A DNA stretch of 54,982 nucleotides, filler included, from Stramenopiles sp. TOSAG23-3 (taxonomy: Eukaryota), in NCBI GenBank assembly GCA_900128585.1. It is 4 parts of 4 records of this genome, joined end to end, with 100 filler letters (N's around TTAATTAATTAA, not from the genome) between each part and the next. Parts side by side here need not be neighbours in the genome. Positions count along the whole stretch, not along the records: positions 1 to 25,365 come from LT642290.1; 3 more parts are not named here. The stretch is one strand, 5' to 3'. The notes under the pieces were generated by a model. That model did not search any database. It was not told the origin of the DNA and was given only the letters and a program-made list of their open reading frames with translations. Positions 3,541 through 52,936 of this stretch are shown here, piece after piece. The position numbers and the translations under genes are program-made. Every line of letters begins with the position of its first letter. Position 1 is the stretch's first letter.

Positions 3541-4333
3541 AAATCCGAATCCAAAAGGGCTGGCTTTGCAGCAGTTCATCACAACATTATTTTGTTGTTG
3601 TTGTTGTTAGTTGTCGCAAATTTCAGACTTTTCGTCGGCGCTCCTCCTGTAACACAGCAAAAAAACGATATACAAGTACACAGCAAAGAAAAGAGGAGTT
3701 TACTGTTCTCTCATCTCTGATTGGTGATTGAGTGGAAGGAATATAGGAGGAAAGAGGTATAATAGAAGCTAAAAAATAAACTTGATATCAAAAATAAATC
3801 TTACCAGCAGGAACACAACATCAACAAAATACTATTTTCAAAATATATTAAGCAACAACAAACCGGACACAAAAAAAACACACAAATAAAAAACGAAAAG
3901 TGGGGAAATTAGACTACACAAATATGTACTTATGTATTAATTGGCAAATTGATTGGGTTATTTTTTTTATCAAAAAATACAAAATAATAATCAATTCCTC
4001 TTTTTTTCTTCTTTTTCTTGTTGTGTGTTTTTTGTTGTTTGTTGTCTTCTTCTTCTCATTCTTCATAATATTATTATTATCGCAGCCGCCGCCGACCACC
4101 AAATGCCAAAAAAAAAATAAAAAGAAGAAGTGGCTGAATCAAACAAAAGTGTTTTTTTCTTTAGCAGAAGGTTCAATCTCCACCATTCTTCCAGACTTTC
4201 TATCGCCCGATATTAAATTCATTTCAATTAACAGGATTCACCCAATTTTTGAAAAGTAAGAATTTTCTAGGATCACCGTTTTGTACGACTTGTTCTGTCT
4301 GGAAAGGATTTTATCAGTCGCGTATAGAGTCCA

Positions 4334-7300
4334 ATGAGAATAGTTGGTGGCTACTTTCTGCGTGGTGTCCACGTGGCCGTCCTTACATTTTTCTTCGTTG
4401 CAACCTTTGATAATGCCCTGTCTGAAGTCTTGTACTCGCGCCCCATAATGTTTGACGACAAACATTATGGGGATATAAAGATATCTTCCAAACGTGAGCC
4501 TGTAGATACAATTCACGCATTTTGTAAAAAGCACAACTTACCACCGCACGTAAAGCGTGGTATCATGGTGGACGTCTGTAAGCAAGAAAAAGTAGTATGC
4601 ACGCGTGACAAACCGGTCTTATTCCGGACGCCGATAACTATAAACGGAACAAAGCTAGGCGTTCTAAAAATTTTAGAAGGAGAAGAACCCGCAGATATAA
4701 TATTTCATTTTGCACGTACAAGACCGAAAGTGACTGCCAAAATGAAGAAGGCGCTTTTGCGTCATGCTTGCAAAGCGATGAAGTGCACGCGGAACAAGGC
4801 TGTTGTTTACACTAAGCCTTTGGTATATGAGGGTAAAACGTACCCAAAAATAGTGCTGTACGATGACGGGAAAGAGCCTAGTGACAAAATATACAAATTC
4901 ACTTATGCCCACGGCCTGCCCCGTCATATTCATAGAGCAGTCGTCACGGACGTTTGCTCAGTAGAGTGGATAGAGTGTCAGCGAACTGCCCCTGTGGTCT
5001 ACCGGGCCCCGATGCTTATTCCCAATAGAACAAAACCGGTGGAGTTAGAAATTTACGAATCCGAAGAGCCAGCAGACAAGGTCCACCATTTTTTGCAGAA
5101 ATATAATTTGTCCAAAGCATTGTCGAAGAAGATATTGCTTCGGGCTTGCCGCAAGACGAAGTGTAGCCGAACAGAGCATGCAAAGTTTGTAGATTCAGTG
5201 CACCACCCCGTACAGAAAGAAGATATCCATGTTGGAATTGTCGATGGAGTAGAGCCGGCAGACGTGCTGCAACAGTGGTCGGTCGAGTATGATATTCCGC
5301 GTTCTCTTCGGGAAAAGGTGCTCAAACGTGCTTGTAAGGTTTTCAACTGTACCCGGGAAAGGGCAAAACTTTACGAAAGGCCTATCATGTACGATGACGT
5401 GGACCAAGGCAACGTTGTCGTGCTGGAAGACGAAGAACCCGCGGACATCGTGCAACAATTTTGTTTGAACAGAAGCCTCCCGGTAGAATTAAGAAACACA
5501 GTGATCGAAGACGCCTGTAAAACGGTGAAATGCACAAGGCTGGACCCAATTATTTTGGAAACAGCGGTAGTCGACGAGAATGGTACTTGGTATGCAAATG
5601 TTACATTTTTTGACGGAGAGGAACCGGCGGATAAAATTTACAGCGAAACGAAGGATACGAACATTACGCACGAAATTAAGCACGAGTTCTTGCTGCAGAA
5701 TGTTTGCAGTGTGATTCCATGCAGGCGTGATCGTGCGATCCTCTTTCAAAATCCAGTTGTGGCCAACGGCAAAAAATACCCTGACTTGATTATTTTTGAT
5801 GCCCCAGATCAAGAACCAACGGACGTCGTATACAATTATTGCAAAAAACACCAAATCCCTGGCTTGCACATGCAACTCCTAACGCATGCATGCCAGGCAG
5901 CGCGGTGTTCTCGTGCAGAGCCCATAATATTTCGGTCCATCATATTGGGAGAGAAAAACGAGGAACTTGGGACGTTAAAGATAAAGCAAGGCGAAGAGCC
6001 CGCTGATGCAATTTTTGAGTTTTGTAAAGAACAAAACTGCACGGAACATTTTCGCCGCAATTTGTTGACCCAAATATGCCCCACAGAGGGGATCGAGTGT
6101 AGTCGCGCAGAGGCGATGATCCTGAGCGTGCCCGTTGTGCACCCTGATTATGGAAACTTTGGGACTCTTTACGTACCGGAAAACAGAGAACCAGCGGATG
6201 TTGTTGAAGAGTTTTCAAATAAAATATTTTTGCCTCGAGACTTTCGTGGTTCAATCATCACTCACGTTTGTAATTTATTTGGAAAACACTACTGGTTCAA
6301 AAATTGTACTCGTCGGCTTCCGTTGTTACTGAACCAAAGTCTGAAGGTGGATAACAGAACTCTCCCCAGACTCGAAATATTCGGTGCAGGGGAGCCTGCG
6401 GATACCATAGATCGTTGGGCAGAAGAATATGGAATCGAAAAGCATATAAGGGACACAGTCATACACAATTTGTGCTCCCGAGATAATTTCCAGTGCAAGC
6501 GCACGATCCCCTGCATATTTCGGATAACTGTATCAGAGTTTTCTGAATCGCCGTTGGAGGTAATGGAGAACGAAGAGGCCATTGACGCTGTCACAAAATA
6601 CATGCGCATAAACGGCGCCCCGCAGCACAAGCGACGTCAACTATTTGACATTGCCTGTAAAGCCCCCAGGGTGATCTGCACCCGCAGGAAAGGGGTTTAT
6701 TACAAAAACACTGTCCAAGGAATTGACGAACCGCTTGTCATCTGGGATGATAATCTTGAGACGGTTGATGCTATTTACAAGTGGGGAAAACGAAATAATT
6801 TGACCTGGATGGAGCGGGATAGAATATACCGGGCAGTTGTTCCAGTAACGAAAAGCGGTAGAGGCGAAGTAATGATTGCATCGTTTCCTGTAAACAATGA
6901 CACGGTTCCTTACTGCCACCGGTTGCTGCAAAATGCTCCATTTCGTGAATACGAGCTGTTTTCAGGAAGCCTGGTTGCCCTCATGTTATCGGTCCCACTC
7001 TTGACCGTGAACGCGTTTGTAGGCGTTAACCCAATCCTGTCGTCCTTGTACCTTGGGCTGTCTGCGGCATTATCGTATTTTGTAGCCGAGCCTTTATCGG
7101 TTGCTACAAGGGTACCATCCCCACAGCTCGAGGCAACGAACTATTTTAATCTTTATCACGTGGCCGATGTCATGGTACGCGAGGGTCAACAACCGTACGA
7201 CGCCGTCTACGAATTCGGAAAATCACGAGAAGGGGCAAAGTTTGAAACGCTGCGTACGCCCAAATTCGATCATATTTTTGAAGGCCTTTGCGAAGACGAG

Positions 7301-7876
7301 GGCGTGAAATGTAATCGCAGGTTCGCGCAGGAAGAAATGTTCAAGGCGGAAGTGAGCCAGCATGGACACAAGCGATTTCTTCATTATATGAAACCGCTGA
7401 ATGAGTCGAAGTGTAAACCAATTGAAGAAAATGGCGTCCTGGGGACAACATGCACTAGGCGCCAGAGCAGAAGATTTTGCAAGATGTTGGACCCCCCTCC
7501 ATCAAGCTGTGTTTCGCAAATCATGGGACTGATTAACCAGCACATGGTGACTTACAACAAGCGAAAGTGGAACGGCCGGCGCTTGTATCGAACTTTGGAC
7601 TCTCTAATGGATGCAAGCAATGCCACGATGTGGAAACGGTATCTAAAAGCTAGAAAGGAATTCGTAAAACCATGCTTCCCGGGGCCAACTCCTTTAGGGT
7701 TTTCAACGATGGAGCGGGATAGGCTGCACACCCTTGGGTCTGCGTGGGGTAGTGTCGGAAAAGATCCGGATGAACGTGCATTTTACGACCAGCCTTGCCG
7801 AATAGTCTTTGGGGCTATGTGCGCAAAAACGAAAAAGTCTGGCGACATGATAATTGAAACGATGCAGCCGGAATAA
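4334..7876 (+). CDS. Secretory/membrane protein with about 14 Cys-containing ~62-aa repeats, a hydrophobic hairpin and a C-terminal degenerate J-like domain
   Basis: 1180-aa ORF with an N-terminal hydrophobic signal. Repeated E-P-x-D-x-I-x-x-F...C-x(3-6)-C-x-R units, a hydrophobic segment at ~6956-7087, and a tail LYRTL..DAS...KRY...AW..V..DPDERAFYD. Confidence 0.8.
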   Translation: MRIVGGYFLRGVHVAVLTFFFVATFDNALSEVLYSRPIMFDDKHYGDIKISSKREPVDTIHAFCKKHNLPPHVKRGIMVDVCKQEKVVCTRDKPVLFRTPITINGTKLGVLKILEGEEPADIIFHFARTRPKVTAKMKKALLRHACKAMKCTRNKAVVYTKPLVYEGKTYPKIVLYDDGKEPSDKIYKFTYAHGLPRHIHRAVVTDVCSVEWIECQRTAPVVYRAPMLIPNRTKPVELEIYESEEPADKVHHFLQKYNLSKALSKKILLRACRKTKCSRTEHAKFVDSVHHPVQKEDIHVGIVDGVEPADVLQQWSVEYDIPRSLREKVLKRACKVFNCTRERAKLYERPIMYDDVDQGNVVVLEDEEPADIVQQFCLNRSLPVELRNTVIEDACKTVKCTRLDPIILETAVVDENGTWYANVTFFDGEEPADKIYSETKDTNITHEIKHEFLLQNVCSVIPCRRDRAILFQNPVVANGKKYPDLIIFDAPDQEPTDVVYNYCKKHQIPGLHMQLLTHACQAARCSRAEPIIFRSIILGEKNEELGTLKIKQGEEPADAIFEFCKEQNCTEHFRRNLLTQICPTEGIECSRAEAMILSVPVVHPDYGNFGTLYVPENREPADVVEEFSNKIFLPRDFRGSIITHVCNLFGKHYWFKNCTRRLPLLLNQSLKVDNRTLPRLEIFGAGEPADTIDRWAEEYGIEKHIRDTVIHNLCSRDNFQCKRTIPCIFRITVSEFSESPLEVMENEEAIDAVTKYMRINGAPQHKRRQLFDIACKAPRVICTRRKGVYYKNTVQGIDEPLVIWDDNLETVDAIYKWGKRNNLTWMERDRIYRAVVPVTKSGRGEVMIASFPVNNDTVPYCHRLLQNAPFREYELFSGSLVALMLSVPLLTVNAFVGVNPILSSLYLGLSAALSYFVAEPLSVATRVPSPQLEATNYFNLYHVADVMVREGQQPYDAVYEFGKSREGAKFETLRTPKFDHIFEGLCEDEGVKCNRRFAQEEMFKAEVSQHGHKRFLHYMKPLNESKCKPIEENGVLGTTCTRRQSRRFCKMLDPPPSSCVSQIMGLINQHMVTYNKRKWNGRRLYRTLDSLMDASNATMWKRYLKARKEFVKPCFPGPTPLGFSTMERDRLHTLGSAWGSVGKDPDERAFYDQPCRIVFGAMCAKTKKSGDMIIETMQPE

Positions 7877-21499: not shown

Positions 21500-22678
21500 A
21501 TGTTCAAGTCCTCCGATGACTCTTTAGACTGCCGCTTCCAGAAGGCTGGGTTTTTAATGAAGCTTCCCTTTGCAACCAAAGGGCGGTGGCAGAAACGTTG
21601 GTTCGTGCTGAAGGACGGGTATATGCTCTATTATGGTAGCTTTAAAAAGTCGACGGAGAAGTTCGACCAGCACCCAAGGGGCGCCGTTCCCCTTGGTAAT
21701 TGCACCATTGAGTACTTCGACGACGCGCCGAAAATACCAAAAGGTTACTACGCGTTTCGGGCCACGCATCCGAACTTCGGTGGCGGCGCAATGACCCTGG
21801 CGTGTTCCGGAAAGGAAGAACGGGACGAATGGATGGCAATCATGCGCGACTGCAGGAGAATAACCTACGAGAATGCACTGCTGGGGGACGGAATGATAAA
21901 GAAGTTGAACAGCAAAGGCTCGGAGCTGGAGGCAGAGCAGGAGGCCGCGATGAAGGAATTTGAAGCAAACGCGCTGCGCCACCGGGAGGAGAGGGAGGCC
22001 TTCGAGGACGCCAAGACGAAAATGGACGACGCGCACAAAGAAGTCGCGAGTATCGACAAAGCGTTGCAAGAGAAGGCGTCGAAGGCGAAAGAAACGGAAG
22101 AGGAACATGCGCAGTTGATGAAAGAGATGGATGCGTACGAAGAGGCTGCAAAGCGGTTAGACGAAGAAAATAATCGCATCGTAGAAGAGCAGGCCCGTTT
22201 GGCCCAGGAGAAGGAGGACGCCGAAGCCCAGCTCGTGGGAGTTGCCGAAGAAGCGGCGACGATGGAGGAGCAGCGAATCGAAGCGGAGCAGAAGCGAGAA
22301 GAGCAAAAGGCGAAAGCGACAGAAGACCAGGCCAAACTGGAGAAGCAAATGGGCGAGTTGTTGAAGGCAAAGGAGGGATTAGAAGCGCGATTGGAGAAAG
22401 AGGCCGTGAAGCATAAGAAAGCCGAAATCAAATTGAAAATGGCCCAAGACTCCGTGCGCCGGCTGGACTCTGCACTGAAACTAAGTGGCGCATCATTAGA
22501 CGACAAATTGTCGAACGATGTCAAAAATCTTATGGGCTTTTTTGAGAAACAGGTGAGTGACCTAAAGCATCAAGTGGATCATGCTGAGAATGTTAAAATT
22601 GGGCTTCGTCAGCACAAACAATACCGCAAAAAAGCCCGGCAATTAAGCGTAGCGCACCCCAGCCAGCTGAACAAGTAG
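21500..22678 (+). CDS. PLEKHD1: PH domain + coiled-coil protein, PLEKHD1-like
   Basis: GFLMKLPF...WQKRWFVLKDGYMLYY, HPRGAVPLG, ITYENALLGDGMI and DVKNLMGFFE parallel recalled PLEKHD1 motifs (HPKGVIPLG, VTWKNAQLGEAMI, DVSHLKRFFE). Confidence 0.75.
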   Translation: MFKSSDDSLDCRFQKAGFLMKLPFATKGRWQKRWFVLKDGYMLYYGSFKKSTEKFDQHPRGAVPLGNCTIEYFDDAPKIPKGYYAFRATHPNFGGGAMTLACSGKEERDEWMAIMRDCRRITYENALLGDGMIKKLNSKGSELEAEQEAAMKEFEANALRHREEREAFEDAKTKMDDAHKEVASIDKALQEKASKAKETEEEHAQLMKEMDAYEEAAKRLDEENNRIVEEQARLAQEKEDAEAQLVGVAEEAATMEEQRIEAEQKREEQKAKATEDQAKLEKQMGELLKAKEGLEARLEKEAVKHKKAEIKLKMAQDSVRRLDSALKLSGASLDDKLSNDVKNLMGFFEKQVSDLKHQVDHAENVKIGLRQHKQYRKKARQLSVAHPSQLNK

Positions 22679-23091
22679 ATGCCCTGGTACTTCAAGAAAA
22701 TCTAAATTGGTGGAACCCAAGACAGAAGAATTGGCACATTCCCAATCTGCTCTATATACGCGGAAGCCGGTTTTAGGTATGCTTTTAAAGTATAGTATGT
22801 ATAACTAAGAAATTCTGAACAAAAACACGGAACAACAACGAAACGGTACTACGAACTCCTATAATTTTCATGGCGGTAGAAATCTATAATTTACCGGGGG
22901 GTCTTCTTCTTCATTGCGTCCCCACAGTAATATGGCTGTACAGCTCCTATTGCAACACGCCAAAAAAAATATCATCACTGAAACGCTGTAGAAGAACGAG
23001 GGCGGCTAGCCAACAGCATGACGTTAGTTATTTACAAACCGGTTTTGTACGATAAACTGAATTAGCTTTCTTTTTTTAAATAGAAGAATTC

Positions 23092-23400
23092 TTACTTCTT
23101 TCCACCAAGAAGTTTCCACACCACTTTCCTGTCCGGTTTTTTCAACTCTTGGGACCCCATGGACTTATTTAACTTTTGCCGGCTTTGGTTGTAGTTAAGA
23201 TGCCGTCGACCAGCCTTCCAACGTTTTACTGTACCGTCCGCTCGCCTCAAAAACCTTTTCTTCGCCGACGACTTCGTTTTGATGCCCATGGACTGTACGT
23301 TTATACAAGGCCGGCCGCACGCCATCGCTCTAGCAGCTACCGTTGGCAGCGGCGTGCCAACGTGGGACCGTGCAAATAACGTCTTCAATACAGTTGCCAT
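23092..23400 (-). CDS. MRPL35: Mitochondrial ribosomal protein bL35m
   Basis: Presequence-like N-terminus followed by IKTKSSAKKRF...GTVKRWKAGRRHL (bL35 signature). Confidence 0.88.
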   Translation of the reverse strand: MATVLKTLFARSHVGTPLPTVAARAMACGRPCINVQSMGIKTKSSAKKRFLRRADGTVKRWKAGRRHLNYNQSRQKLNKSMGSQELKKPDRKVVWKLLGGKK

Positions 23401-24135
23401 CTCAGTCCACTATTTGTTACACGACCCGTCACTCGTTGAATAGATAGCTAGAAAAAGTACAACAACAATTCGTTTACACAGAATTGTTATGTGCATCCTT
23501 CTTCTCTGTTTTCTCAACTGTTTACATTACTAAATTCCTATTATATATAAAACTAATACCATAGTATTTATAAAATGCACAACAAGATTAATAATAATAA
23601 TTTTCGGTCTTGACTCCTCGTATATTCCTCGTATTCCTCGTTGGAGTATGGAGAGTAGGGATTTTGAGATCATTTACGTAATATACTATAATTGGTCCGA
23701 AAAGGATAGGCAAGAAGAGAAATTCAAAAACAATCGTACTTTAGTATAATCAACGATCACAATCACCACTCTTTAATCCACACGGACGCTCCAACGACCG
23801 TACCGTACTGCACACCAAAAAAAATTCTTTCGACTATGCGTAACAATTCTGACATTTCCATGTTCATCTTTGTCCTATCAAGCACCCCTTACCATCGATT
23901 AGATATTCACACAACAGTTTTTATCTCGGAAACATTTTCCTTTTGGCACTCATTGGGGACGGAATCAGTGAACGTCCCGCACAATCGTTCTGTACATAGA
24001 TCTGTAAATAGACGGAGGTGGTGGGTCTCCAGGCATTTTAGTGTTTTTGGAGGTATGAATGTGCTTTTTCTTGTTTAATTATTGGCAATTTTGGTTTATT
24101 TGTGGTGTGCGTCCCCGTTTAAGCGGAAACTAAAC

Positions 24136-24498
24136 TCATTTTTCTCCAACAACAACTTTGCCGTAACCACCAGCTATTACCAGGGCGTGGTCTTCGCATG
24201 TTGGCTCGTATGCGGTCGGCTCAAACGGATTATACCTCGGTGATTCTGGAGCGAACGGGTCATAGGTCGGACTCTTCGGGGAGTATTTCGGACACTCTGC
24301 GCTTGCCGGGCCCATTATAGGCTGGTATAAGGAAGGTTGCGCGGTTGGCTGACTAAACGCATTCACCGGTTGGCTAAACGCGTTCACCGGCTGACTAAAC
24401 GCATTCACCGGCTGACTGAATACATTCATTGGCTGGTTGAATATACCTGTTGACGGTGCGGTAAAAGCGGGGATAAGCCTTGAATGGGCAAGATACAT
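24136..24498 (-). CDS. Small low-complexity cargo ORF with FSQPVNA repeats and YSPxSP motifs
   Basis: 120-aa ORF inside the TIR element. The 21-bp repeats at 24347-24444 vary mostly at synonymous sites. Confidence 0.55.
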   Translation of the reverse strand: MYLAHSRLIPAFTAPSTGIFNQPMNVFSQPVNAFSQPVNAFSQPVNAFSQPTAQPSLYQPIMGPASAECPKYSPKSPTYDPFAPESPRYNPFEPTAYEPTCEDHALVIAGGYGKVVVGEK

Positions 24499-24567
24499 AA
24501 TAATGTATAGAGTACGATGGTTCGAACTAAACTCATGTTATTATAAATTTATTGATATTTATACATG

Positions 24568-24687
24568 TTAATTGTTAAACAATGCCTCACAGTCCTTACC
24601 GTATGCTTTTAAAAATTTCTCACCAATGATCATACTATGTACAGGTTCGGTTTGTGTGGATGTATCACGCGTAGGTGGAGTGACCAT
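24568..24687 (-). CDS. Putative 39-aa micro-ORF (MVTPPTRDTSTQTE...) inside the TIR element
   Basis: ATG in AT-rich context (TATTATG, as in the neighbouring ORF) and a TQT motif. Confidence 0.3.
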   Translation of the reverse strand: MVTPPTRDTSTQTEPVHSMIIGEKFLKAYGKDCEALFNN

Positions 24688-24850
24688 AATATTATATTTA
24701 ATGGAACAGTGTGCAAAGACAACGACTGGTTCGAGGAGAATGTTTGCAACCCTGATGTCTGTACAGCGACTGCTAATATACCTCGTATGCTCCAATAAGT
24801 TTGACTGTTCCTCGAACAATTGTAAATGTCAATGTGTTGTTGGTGAAATT

Positions 24851-25091
24851 AGAAACATTTTTTTAATTACTTTAATTATTATTGTTGAATGAAAATAATA
24901 TATAATAATTAATATATTTTTTTTAAATAATCAATTTAGATATAAATAACAAGGGAGTATTAAATTGAAAATAGAAACATTTTTTTTTTATTATTATTTT
25001 TTTATTATTTTATTATTATATTGTTGACTGAATATATTATTATTTTTTTAATAATCAGTTTAACATATAAATAACAAGGAAGTATTAACTT
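24851..25091. repeat. Degenerate ~122-125-bp tandem duplication inside the TIR element
   Basis: AGAAACATTTTTT occurs at ~24851 and ~24973, and TATAAATAACAAGG(G/A)AGTATTAA at ~24941 and ~25066. Confidence 0.7.
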
Positions 25092-25365
25092 CCAAAAGAG
25101 ACGAACAATACGAACATTGTATAGCATGGGAAATGGTGAGATGTCGGAAGACTCAGTTTCGTGAAGTAGATCAATGTATGTAGATAAATGTAAAGTTTTG
25201 GGACTGCATTTTCGTTAACTTTTTATTAAGTACTTAAAAATCTATTTTCCTATACATACTATACAATCCCTACTCTCCATACTCCACTCGTCCCTCGTCT
25301 TCCTTTTTCTTCCTCCTTCTCTCTCTTCTTTTCTTTTCTCTTCTTCTTCTTTCTTCTTTCTTCTT

Positions 25366-25465
25366 NNNNNNNNNNNNNNNNNNNNNNNNNNNNNNNNNNN
25401 NNNNNNNNNTTAATTAATTAANNNNNNNNNNNNNNNNNNNNNNNNNNNNNNNNNNNNNNNNNNNN
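25366..25465. other. Artificial contig spacer (N44-TTAATTAATTAA-N44)
   Basis: All-frame stop linker embedded in Ns. Confidence 0.98.
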
Positions 25466-26028: not shown

Positions 26029-26089
26029 GTTTCCCATTTGACAATGGACTAGTATACTAGTTTCCCATTTGACAATGGACTAGTATACT
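26029..26089. repeat. Exact 30-bp direct repeat, period 31
   Basis: GTTTCCCATTTGACAATGGACTAGTATACT at 26029-26058 and 26060-26089. Confidence 0.95.
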
Positions 26090-50690: not shown

Positions 50691-50790
50691 NNNNNNNNNN
50701 NNNNNNNNNNNNNNNNNNNNNNNNNNNNNNNNNNTTAATTAATTAANNNNNNNNNNNNNNNNNNNNNNNNNNNNNNNNNNNNNNNNNNNN
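50691..50790. other. Artificial contig spacer
   Basis: N44-TTAATTAATTAA-N44. Confidence 0.98.
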
Positions 50791-50869
50791 ATTGAATTTT
50801 ATAGTGAAATCTTCCCCCCACACGGGGTCTAGGGTCTTTTTTATTACTTTGGACATGCATTGCTTTTCC

Positions 50870-51716
50870 GGTAGAAGAAGGAAAACTGCGCCTCCCCAAC
50901 CGTCTTCAAATGTTCAAATAGTTGCGCAACTTCCTTTTGGCTTCCTGAAATCGTCTGCCCCGAGGGGGAGTTTTCACATCCTACACAGACTTGTGTTAGC
51001 CCCACCTCTTCTATTGCTTGGGTCACAACGGAGGCTTCCAAACCAATGACGCTCATTTGACCAGTCATGTCGTACAAAGTATCGTCCGCAGTCTCCGTTC
51101 CTTTTCTATCGACCACGACATTCTTTGAATAGAATTTGTCGATGTCGCGCTCATCGGTAATATAGTAGTGGTTGAAACCAGACGATTGAAACATAAGCTC
51201 TAAGCACTCGATCCGCCTTCTAGTTTTAAGAATAAACTGGCCAGGTCTAATTTTTTCAATCATTTTTGCTTGCACCCACTGGAACAGAATTGTCTCTTTT
51301 TCAGTTTGGGCACCGCTTGCATAGCCGGAGGCAGTTTCTCCAATGGAGTGGCCAATGACGTAGTCGGGCGACGGCAAGCGGATGTCTTCTCGTAGGATAT
51401 TTATTACTCCAATCTGATACGCTACGATCCCAATGCCCGTGTATTTTTTATCTGTCCAACATTCCCCTTTACTAGCAAACAGTTTAACCAGCTCGGTCAC
51501 TTCATTCGCAGGGTCAACCTCCTTCAAATACTTTGACAAACGAACGATCGTTTTGCGGAACGTTTTATTGTGGTATATGAGTGTCGATCCCATAGAAGCC
51601 CACTGCGAGCCAATTCCCCCAAAAATATACGCTGTGCTACTCTTCGGTGCAATCACCCTCGGAACGCGAGGGGTGTGCCGGGAAACAGCTGAGGCAGAGG
51701 CGGCAAAATTTGACAT
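50870..51716 (-). CDS. N-terminal acyltransferase (MAT/AT) domain of a type I PKS/FAS-like protein; 3'-truncated by a chimeric junction
   Basis: YIFGGIGSQWASMG, PDYVIGHSIGE (GHSxG catalytic Ser), GQMSVIGL and CENSPSGQTISG motifs. Confidence 0.85.
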
Positions 51717-52647
51717 GGGTATTTATGTACACGTTCCCGTCACCAAGCTGACCACTCGTCGTCTTTCGTTTTAGTTTGGCACAAATTAACCGGCGCAATG
51801 GGTCTTTATGGTCTCGTTCCGCACTGCTGATTTCTTATTTATTGTAGTCTTATAATATATCTATGTATTTTCATTTGATCTTGATGAGTTGCAATTACTT
51901 TTTCAGTTGTTGAAAACACTTGTCTGTTTTTTTATAATAGTAGAAGAAACGAAGAAGAAGAAACTACTAGTCGGTCTAATTTAATTGTGGTGATTAGAAA
52001 AGACTTAGTTGTTGTGTACCTGTATTATTAATAATTAAAAAAAGAAAGGGAAGCATTCTGGGTATAATATTATAGTGTCTATTTAATTTAAAAACTTTAT
52101 TATTTGATGTGACGATGTGACGATGCAATAAATCGGAAATAACCCTAACCCCACCCCAATCTATGAAATCAGAACTTCACCTATTATAACCCTAATCATA
52201 ACTATAATACAACGTATAAATAGTAAAAAAGATGGAGGAAGAAGAAGAACAAAAACAAAAACAAAACAAAAAAAAGAAGAAAAAGATTTAAAAATAGCAT
52301 TGACTTTCGTATATAAACGTCTCTCTGTTATTCTCTCATATTTAAAAAAAAAATGGTTTTTTTGTTGTTGTTTGGTTGTTGTTAGTCGTCTATTATTATT
52401 ACGGTACAGGTACGGTACTTCTTCTACTAATCATACAAAAAAAAGAAAAGTGCTGCTGATGATTCCTTCTTCTATATATATATTCCTTCTTTTTTGTTGT
52501 TGATATTCTTCTTCTCCCGAATGTTTTATATAGCAACGAAATCATGGAATTAATCACGGCGTGCGATCTAAATTGAAGTGAGATACCAGAAATATTAGCG
52601 CGTTTACGTTCTTTTGATATGCAAACAAACACGTTTATCGTTACACA

Positions 52648-52836
52648 ATGTCGATCCCAACCTATACGCTAAACTTTACTCTAGACTCTGCCAGTGGCCT
52701 CAAGAAGGCAGATACGTTTGGGAAATCAGACCCGTACTGCATAGTGAAAGTGAACGGGGAAAAGCAATGCATGTCCAAAGTAATAAAAAAGACCCTAGAC
52801 CCCGTGTGGGGGGAAGATTTCACTATAAAATTCAAT
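52648..52836 (+). CDS. C2-domain protein, N-terminal fragment (contig end)
   Basis: SASGLKKADTFGKSDPYC.V...SKVIKKTLDPVWGEDF. Confidence 0.9.
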
Positions 52837-52936
52837 NNNNNNNNNNNNNNNNNNNNNNNNNNNNNNNNNNNNNNNNNNNNTTAATTAATTAANNNNNNNN
52901 NNNNNNNNNNNNNNNNNNNNNNNNNNNNNNNNNNNN
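52837..52936. other. Artificial contig spacer
   Basis: N44-TTAATTAATTAA-N44. Confidence 0.98.

Follow-up and report, generated by a model that had tools for sequence, protein, structure and literature searches.

Near the end of one sequence part in the genome of Stramenopiles sp. TOSAG23-3 lies a unit of about 1.6 kb bounded by perfect inverted repeats, and the question it raises is whether this is a mobile element, and if so of what kind. The stretch analysed here (54,982 nt, hereafter the window) is a eukaryotic pseudo-molecule with long, intron-poor open reading frames (ORFs) on both strands and AT-rich spacers that carry microsatellites; the unit occupies positions 23642–25286. A first-pass annotation had described it as a TG...CA element and offered three explanations, namely a recent element that is non-autonomous and depends on mobilisation in trans, a solo long terminal repeat (LTR) and a satellite of a viral element. 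The analysis supports the first of these, and the unit is very probably one copy of a young, multi-copy, non-autonomous, inverted-repeat class II DNA transposon of a marine protist. The reading is favoured because copies exist at other loci, the duplication of the target site has a constant length of 5 bp, the short ends are perfect, no enzyme is encoded inside, and a miniature form has kept the same ends.

Terminal repeats and copies at other loci

The left terminal inverted repeat (23642–23663, plus strand, TGGAGTATGGAGAGTAGGGATT) starts with TG and the right one (25265–25286, minus strand) ends with CA. Together they form inverted-repeat pair I20, the arms of which are 22 nt long, 100% complementary and 1601 nt apart, giving an element of 1645 bp, and the exact repeats claimed in the first-pass annotation were thus reproduced at the same positions. 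The 22-bp sequence has exactly two matches within the window at up to three mismatches, and none of 100 dinucleotide shuffles of the window gave two or more (mean 0.00). A perfect repeat of this length with a shuffle expectation of zero is far beyond a chance origin. The likeness between the two ends ceases exactly at base 22. No second copy of the element was found within the window, which therefore holds a single one; an apparent repetition of left-flank sequence within the element (D13/D14) proved to be a chance similarity.

Copies were sought by scanning the metagenome_contigs collection once with the first 20 bases of the repeat, a match to those 20 bases being required. The scan returned nine rows under eight locus identifiers, corresponding to seven distinct contigs. 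When these were compared with the window by BLAST, the element alone was shared and never the window flanks (low-complexity microsatellite matches aside), and the flanks of the seven contigs are all mutually different. With the window included, the number of insertion sites is eight. The first-pass annotation had made its reading depend on the existence of further copies, and the element is present on seven contigs besides that of the window.

Full copies are found on L004 (378–2011) and L007 (4666–6297; L008 is the same contig), and a nearly full copy on L005, where the copy is cut off by the contig start after 1523 bp. Partial copies occur on L002 and L006, with the left and the right end, respectively, lying at the contig end. 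On L001, positions 382–629 correspond to window 25040–25288, the last 250 bp of the element, while the sequence past it (630–2314) consists of an AT-rich spacer, a Lys-rich ORF of 128 aa and a host-like gene with an Ephrin_rec_like Cys-repeat; this locus may be a truncation, a form of the element with other cargo, or a chimeric contig. The seventh contig, L003, carries an 88-bp miniature (5001–5088) with both 22-bp ends perfect and a diverged interior, its 44 internal bp resembling the subterminal parts of the long form only loosely.

The long forms are 1.63–1.65 kb in length and closely similar. Of about 1630 columns aligned across the copies of the window, L004, L007 and L005, only seven contain substitutions; the AT tract has indels as well (at 24988–25001 and 25018 in window coordinates), and the BLAST identity of the long copies is 98.8–99.5%. 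The termini are conserved throughout, being identical at 22 of 22 positions in all ten non-redundant ends of the seven metagenome contigs. No imperfect termini with up to five substitutions were seen in these contigs, a result to be read with the scan's requirement for the first 20 bases; that both ends are perfect in each of the three complete metagenome elements was not forced by the scan. Retention of the ends while the interior of the miniature drifts is what would be predicted from selection for recognition by a transposase.

The host of the extra copies can be approached through codon usage, for which 13 long window ORFs served as the training set. By this measure, ORFs flanking the element on L003, L007 and L006 score 0.084–0.153 per codon, compared with a range of 0.085–0.379 in the window, and the copies could come from the same organism as the window or a close one. 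A search of prokaryote genome_contigs with the 20-mer gave no matches. In a listing of 24 public sequencing runs, 20 contain part of the region 21900–25366 and 14 contain at least half of the sampled words, with 13 studies represented, mostly marine metagenomes; these shares are not used as evidence that the insertion is present or absent. In RNA runs, 0.22–0.34 of the sampled words of the region are present, and these values are likewise not used as evidence of transcription.

The same data bear on whether the unit is mobile at all. It could be an ordinary host gene that happens to be enclosed by a chance or artefactual inverted repeat, created as a chimera during assembly or amplification: a suspicious 79-bp perfect inverted repeat does exist in the same assembly, at both ends of the contig 50791–52836, and the right end of the element is only 80 bp from a contig end. 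This explanation is scarcely credible, as independent metagenome assemblies contain the same unit with the same ends in seven other contexts, and the shuffle expectation is zero. Several features typical of class II transposons are seen in the family, namely terminal inverted repeats that are perfect in the window and in the three complete metagenome elements, a duplication of constant length in three of four elements (L004 being the exception), and several genomic contexts, that is, seven metagenome contigs in addition to the window.

Target-site duplications and affinities of the element

The 5-mer CTCGT precedes the left end of the window copy (23637–23641, no strand assigned) and, as read from the sequence, follows its right end (25287–25291, likewise unstranded), as the first-pass annotation had noted. 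On the left, the flanking sequence is a short repeat of the ATTCCTCGT type and on the right it is ctcgtccctcgt, with CCTCGT-like repeats abundant on both sides. Because the flanks are rich in such repeats, the duplication of the window copy taken alone could be partly fortuitous, a caution that the annotation had itself voiced and that is justified for this copy. The matter is settled by exact 5-bp duplications at two other complete elements, CTCGT on both sides in L003 and ATAAT on both sides in L007. A tabulation of duplication lengths, which the annotation had proposed, was made with the metagenome copies, all flanking 5-mers being oriented as in the window: among the four elements visible with both flanks, an exact 5-bp duplication is present in three (window, L003 and L007), and in L004 the left and right 5-mers differ (CTTGG and CTAAG).

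Elements seen at one end only are flanked by CTGGG and CTCAA (left ends) and by CTAAG and TTTAG (right ends); since no two of these 5-mers are compatible, they represent four further insertion sites. With the two sides of L004 counted separately there are nine flanking 5-mers; in every one the second base is T and the fourth a purine, and seven of the nine begin with C, which at this small sample size hints at a target preference. The unrelated loci of the window (23634–23641) and L003 (5089–5096) share 8 bp on the left side, TTCCTCGT, which goes beyond CTCGT and is possibly an extended target preference. The L007 target (4630–4665 and 6298–6313) is a 21-bp tandem repeat, with ATAATACCTGTACCTG on both sides, and palindromes of the GGTACC type abound in the region of this insertion; only ATAAT counts as the duplication itself.

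A simple model would account for these features. A transposase encoded elsewhere would recognise the 22-bp ends and move the element in trans, inserting it where the two target strands are cut 5 bp apart, and the 5-bp duplication would arise when the gaps that remain are repaired. The 88-bp miniature, which resembles a miniature inverted-repeat transposable element (MITE) and has the same ends, would presumably be moved by the same enzyme.

Ends of the TG...CA type and a 5-bp duplication also suit an LTR, and LTR retrotransposons are given 3–6-bp duplications in the part of PMC10045372 that deals with this feature. The units could in that case be solo LTRs of a Copia/Gypsy-type retrotransposon, left behind by LTR–LTR recombination, with the ends and the duplication produced by the integrase of the retroelement; solo LTRs of this kind need contain no ORF, and it would fit that there is no transposase inside the element and that every complete copy stands alone. 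We consider this improbable. The six left-end and six right-end flanks, window included, show none alike, and hence no shared internal retroelement sequence, in a sample that is small and comes from metagenome assemblies, which break at repeats. None of the six right flanks begins with TGG, as a primer-binding site would. Flank ORFs scanned with Pfam (two on L003 and those on L007, L006 and L001) have host-type domains or no match, with no reverse transcriptase, RNase H or integrase among them. An LTR retrotransposon would be expected to have the units also as direct pairs around gag-pol, next to a primer-binding site and polypurine tract, and in this small sample none of the 12 ends adjoins a common internal sequence or a primer-binding site starting with TGG. 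Solo LTRs also differ from the element in lacking its perfect 22-bp inverted repeat and its end-keeping miniature, and an 88-bp form with perfect ends and a diverged interior is not expected from in-place deletion of a young solo LTR.

Even less probable is a viral explanation, in which a viral integrase moves either a satellite, as offered in the first-pass annotation, or the remnant of an integrating virophage or Polinton-like element. All that speaks for it is the TG...CA ends with a short duplication, which are products of integrase-type enzymes as these are treated in the relevant part of PMC2836005. The 22-mer had no matches in viral_contigs, viral genes were found neither inside the element nor in the scanned flanks, and the 6-bp duplications listed for Polintons in the corresponding part of PMC10045372 differ from the 5 bp observed here.

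Among DNA transposons, the closest comparison is with the Ginger2/TDD group, which are likewise cut-and-paste inverted-repeat elements with a TG start and a CA end. Ginger termini have the form TGTNR...YNACA, with repeats of about 40–300 bp (about 45–297 bp for Ginger2/TDD in Table 2), and duplications are 5 bp for TDD-4 and TDD-5 and 4 bp at RTATAY for the remaining Ginger2 families, according to the passages of PMC2836005 that describe them. The 5-bp duplication of the present element agrees with that of TDD-4 and TDD-5, whereas its terminus is TGGAG rather than TGTNR, its repeat is 22 bp long, well short of the range for Ginger, and its flanking 5-mers, all nine with T second and a purine fourth, differ from the RTATAY target. 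In the part of PMC10045372 concerned, Polinton and IS3EU are listed with 6-bp duplications, Ginger2 with 4 or 5 bp and IS481EU with 4, 15 or 25 bp. Like MITEs and their longer relatives, the 88-bp and 1.63–1.65-kb forms contain no transposase and have the same terminal repeats and length of duplication; a difference is that the miniature was seen as a single copy (L003). Transib elements have 5-bp duplications too, but their termini are of the CAC type. Overall, the element behaves as a transposon moved by an integrase-type or other DDE enzyme would, and an integrase-like enzyme of this class is in keeping with its TG...CA ends and 5-bp duplication; assignment to a superfamily would need the transposase.

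Several observations weigh against the interpretation of the unit as a non-autonomous DNA transposon. L004 is without a 5-bp duplication, and its flanks (366–377 and 2012–2021) contain a 7-bp inverted match, ATACCCT/AGGGTAT, with unequal spacers; the contig may be chimeric, with the flanks of two different copies brought together through the repeat, or the target may have been palindromic. The extra copies are all on metagenome contigs. Neither a transposase nor an autonomous partner with the same ends was found among the seven contigs, and both mobilisation in trans and the type of enzyme are points that we infer. Set beside the seven other loci, the duplications in three of four elements, the near-identity of the copies and the miniature, they leave the recent, trans-mobilised transposon proposed in the first-pass annotation well supported, the solo LTR disfavoured and the viral satellite without support.

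Interior of the element and the RPB1-like reading frame

The composition of the element is a mosaic, with a GC content of 0.47–0.55 at 24100–24499 and of 0.10–0.23 at 24800–25099. The left interior (23664–24135, no strand assigned) has a GC content of 0.36–0.48 and, judged by codon score and Pfam, no convincing coding signal; a plus-strand ORF within it (23710–24078) scores −0.097 per codon against the window-trained usage and has no Pfam match. To the right, a very AT-rich region (24844–25101, unstranded; GC 0.10–0.23) contains a tandem duplication of about 125 bp (families D2 and D7; 73% identity over 143 columns) and is the length-variable part of the family. The absence of a transposase or integrase within the 1645 bp, also stated in the first-pass annotation, was borne out by Pfam searches with five inner ORFs of 86–133 aa, which gave nothing at or above the curated cut-offs and no transposase, integrase or reverse transcriptase; the best match, MINT_RAM7, had an E-value of 0.005 and 17 bits, where the cut-off is 108. 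The element also gave no hits in Rfam and tRNA scans.

By codon score and composition, the only plausible coding part is an ORF of 120 aa on the minus strand (24139–24498, stop codon 24136–24138), which lies in the GC island (0.47–0.55). Its score of +0.075 per codon is comparable with that of the neighbouring L35 gene (+0.050), while other ORFs of the element range from −0.10 to +0.035. Tandem repeats of 21 nt at 24347–24455 (unstranded; family D1, four copies at spacings of 21, 21 and 25) encode FSQPVNA heptads, of which the predicted protein contains four or five. In other metagenome assemblies the protein occurs at 98–99% identity (P0001 and P0002), and a search for proteins of similar length returned only copies that are 98–100% identical. 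One match, P0003 on a 705-bp contig, agrees fully with the ORF over 74 residues, past which its AT-rich sequence has no counterpart in the window, the break falling at about window position 24277; it comes from an element that is either structurally variant or truncated.

An exhaustive phmmer search with the 120-aa protein gave 58 proteins at E ≤ 0.001, P0002 and P0003 among them, and only one of the 58, P0013 (448 aa), is colinear with the ORF beyond the heptad periodicity (E 4.3e-14 for the whole library; 86.7 bits; 53 of 119 columns identical). Residues 38–124 of P0013 are the Pfam domain RNA_pol_Rpb1_5, the protein aligns best to positions about 1311–1477 of solved Pol II RPB1 chains (E 9e-33, with Pol III and Pol I weaker), and its C-terminal end consists of YSPTSPA-type heptads; the part resembling the ORF is for these reasons the linker and degenerate-heptad region of an RPB1 tail. 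Similarity of the window to P0013 is confined by tblastn to 24199–24471 (minus strand), DNA that belongs to the GC island. From the phmmer match, the alignment and the tblastn limits, this segment is taken as homologous to the RPB1 tail and as a putative captured gene fragment. In terms of the model, the 1.6-kb form would carry a 120-codon ORF in which some 90 residues in the middle came from the linker and heptad tail of RPB1 or from an ancestor common to both, and the piece would most simply be a fragment of a host gene picked up by the element in a Pack-type-like manner. We regard such a capture as moderately probable from the sequence comparisons.

It is rather unlikely, on the other hand, that the ORF is an unrelated or de novo heptad-repeat frame which came to resemble P0013 by low-complexity convergence, an outcome that would leave the transposon reading unaffected. 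In keeping with convergence, 57 of the 58 phmmer matches are not colinear beyond the heptads, and those examined, P0010–P0012 (FSQAVGK, MSQPLKV and FDEPVAV repeats, about 40 bits), were set aside as matches of heptad periodicity and not relatives, as were the long proteins P0020, P0034 and others. An atlas search with the ORF likewise gave only weak, low-complexity FG-repeat-like leads (≤0.78), and one with the 86-aa ORF gave nothing. Common ancestry is favoured by the order of motifs, since P0013 and the ORF have near-identical heptads (FNQPxNVFSQPxNxF) followed in the same order by AQPSxYxPxM and YDPxAPxSPxYxPFxPTA, and by a bit score of 86.7 against about 40 for the repeat-only matches.

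The case for a captured RPB1 fragment has its own difficulties. The coding score of the ORF, at +0.075 per codon, is weak, and a word-based search for longer relatives of the protein found nothing. For the non-repeat tail of the ORF, P0013 was the sole match among 62 proteins, and the E-value of 5e-8 applies to that small set. The link to RPB1 depends on one protein from another organism, with 45% identity in a low-complexity region.

Non-autonomous elements that hold host gene fragments between their inverted repeats have been described in plants as Pack-TYPE elements (Pack-MULE and Pack-CACTA; PMC6379663, PMC8903248), and the present element shares this organisation. As far as those sources extend, Pack-TYPE elements belong to the Mutator and CACTA superfamilies of plants, whereas the element described here is from a marine protist, makes 5-bp duplications and has a single putative fragment. 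That fragment (24199–24471) is homologous to the RPB1 tail of another organism, and a parent gene in the host was not seen. A more far-reaching version of the preferred reading would make the family an undescribed lineage or superfamily of cut-and-paste transposons in eukaryotes (TGGAG...CTCCA, 22-bp repeats, CTNRN-like 5-bp target) that is now active in a widespread marine protist and whose RPB1-tail ORF, instead of being inert cargo, would be expressed as a decoy resembling the C-terminal domain of the polymerase; we think this unlikely.

Genomic surroundings and biological meaning

The window copy is 232 bp upstream of the ORF for L35, a protein with relatives at 91–56% identity. On L007 the element is 312 bp from the 5' end of an ORF with RCC1 repeats, on L003 it is situated between divergent ORFs, and on L006 it lies 3' of the neighbouring ORF. 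Within runs of N in the window, TTAATTAATTAA linkers at 25410–25421, 50735–50746 and 52881–52892 mark joined contigs, so adjacency across the gaps is not established; sequence to the right of the element is affected too, from 80 bp beyond its end.

Other repeats were noted elsewhere in the window. The arms of the 79-bp perfect inverted repeat mentioned above (50791–50869 and 52758–52836) are at the ends of a small contig between two N/linker gaps, and the repeat looks like a fold-back artefact of assembly or amplification rather than a second transposon; the contig (50791–52836) holds an Acyl_transf_1 ORF. A perfect 30-bp tandem repeat, GTTTCCCATTTGACAATGGACTAGTATACT, occurs at 26029–26058 and 26060–26089 with a 1-bp spacer (family D6), and a 32-bp near-perfect palindrome (93.75%) is found at 4441–4472, inside the long ORF 4328–7876.

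To our knowledge, the compact genomes of marine protists have few transposons, and active DNA transposons in them have seldom been documented. The element changes no general principle, being a well-supported but ordinary kind of mobile element. Near-identical copies at eight sites across independent ocean metagenomes, together with the miniature, point to transposition that is current or very recent. The element could mark variation between strains, and with three insertions 230–550 bp from the 5' end of a flanking gene, it could also be a source of promoter-proximal mutations. Its ends and duplication length fit no described superfamily cleanly, and with the transposase in hand the family could be placed, perhaps close to the integrase-like group. 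If the RPB1-tail cargo is what it appears to be, the element would represent the capture of a gene fragment outside plants.

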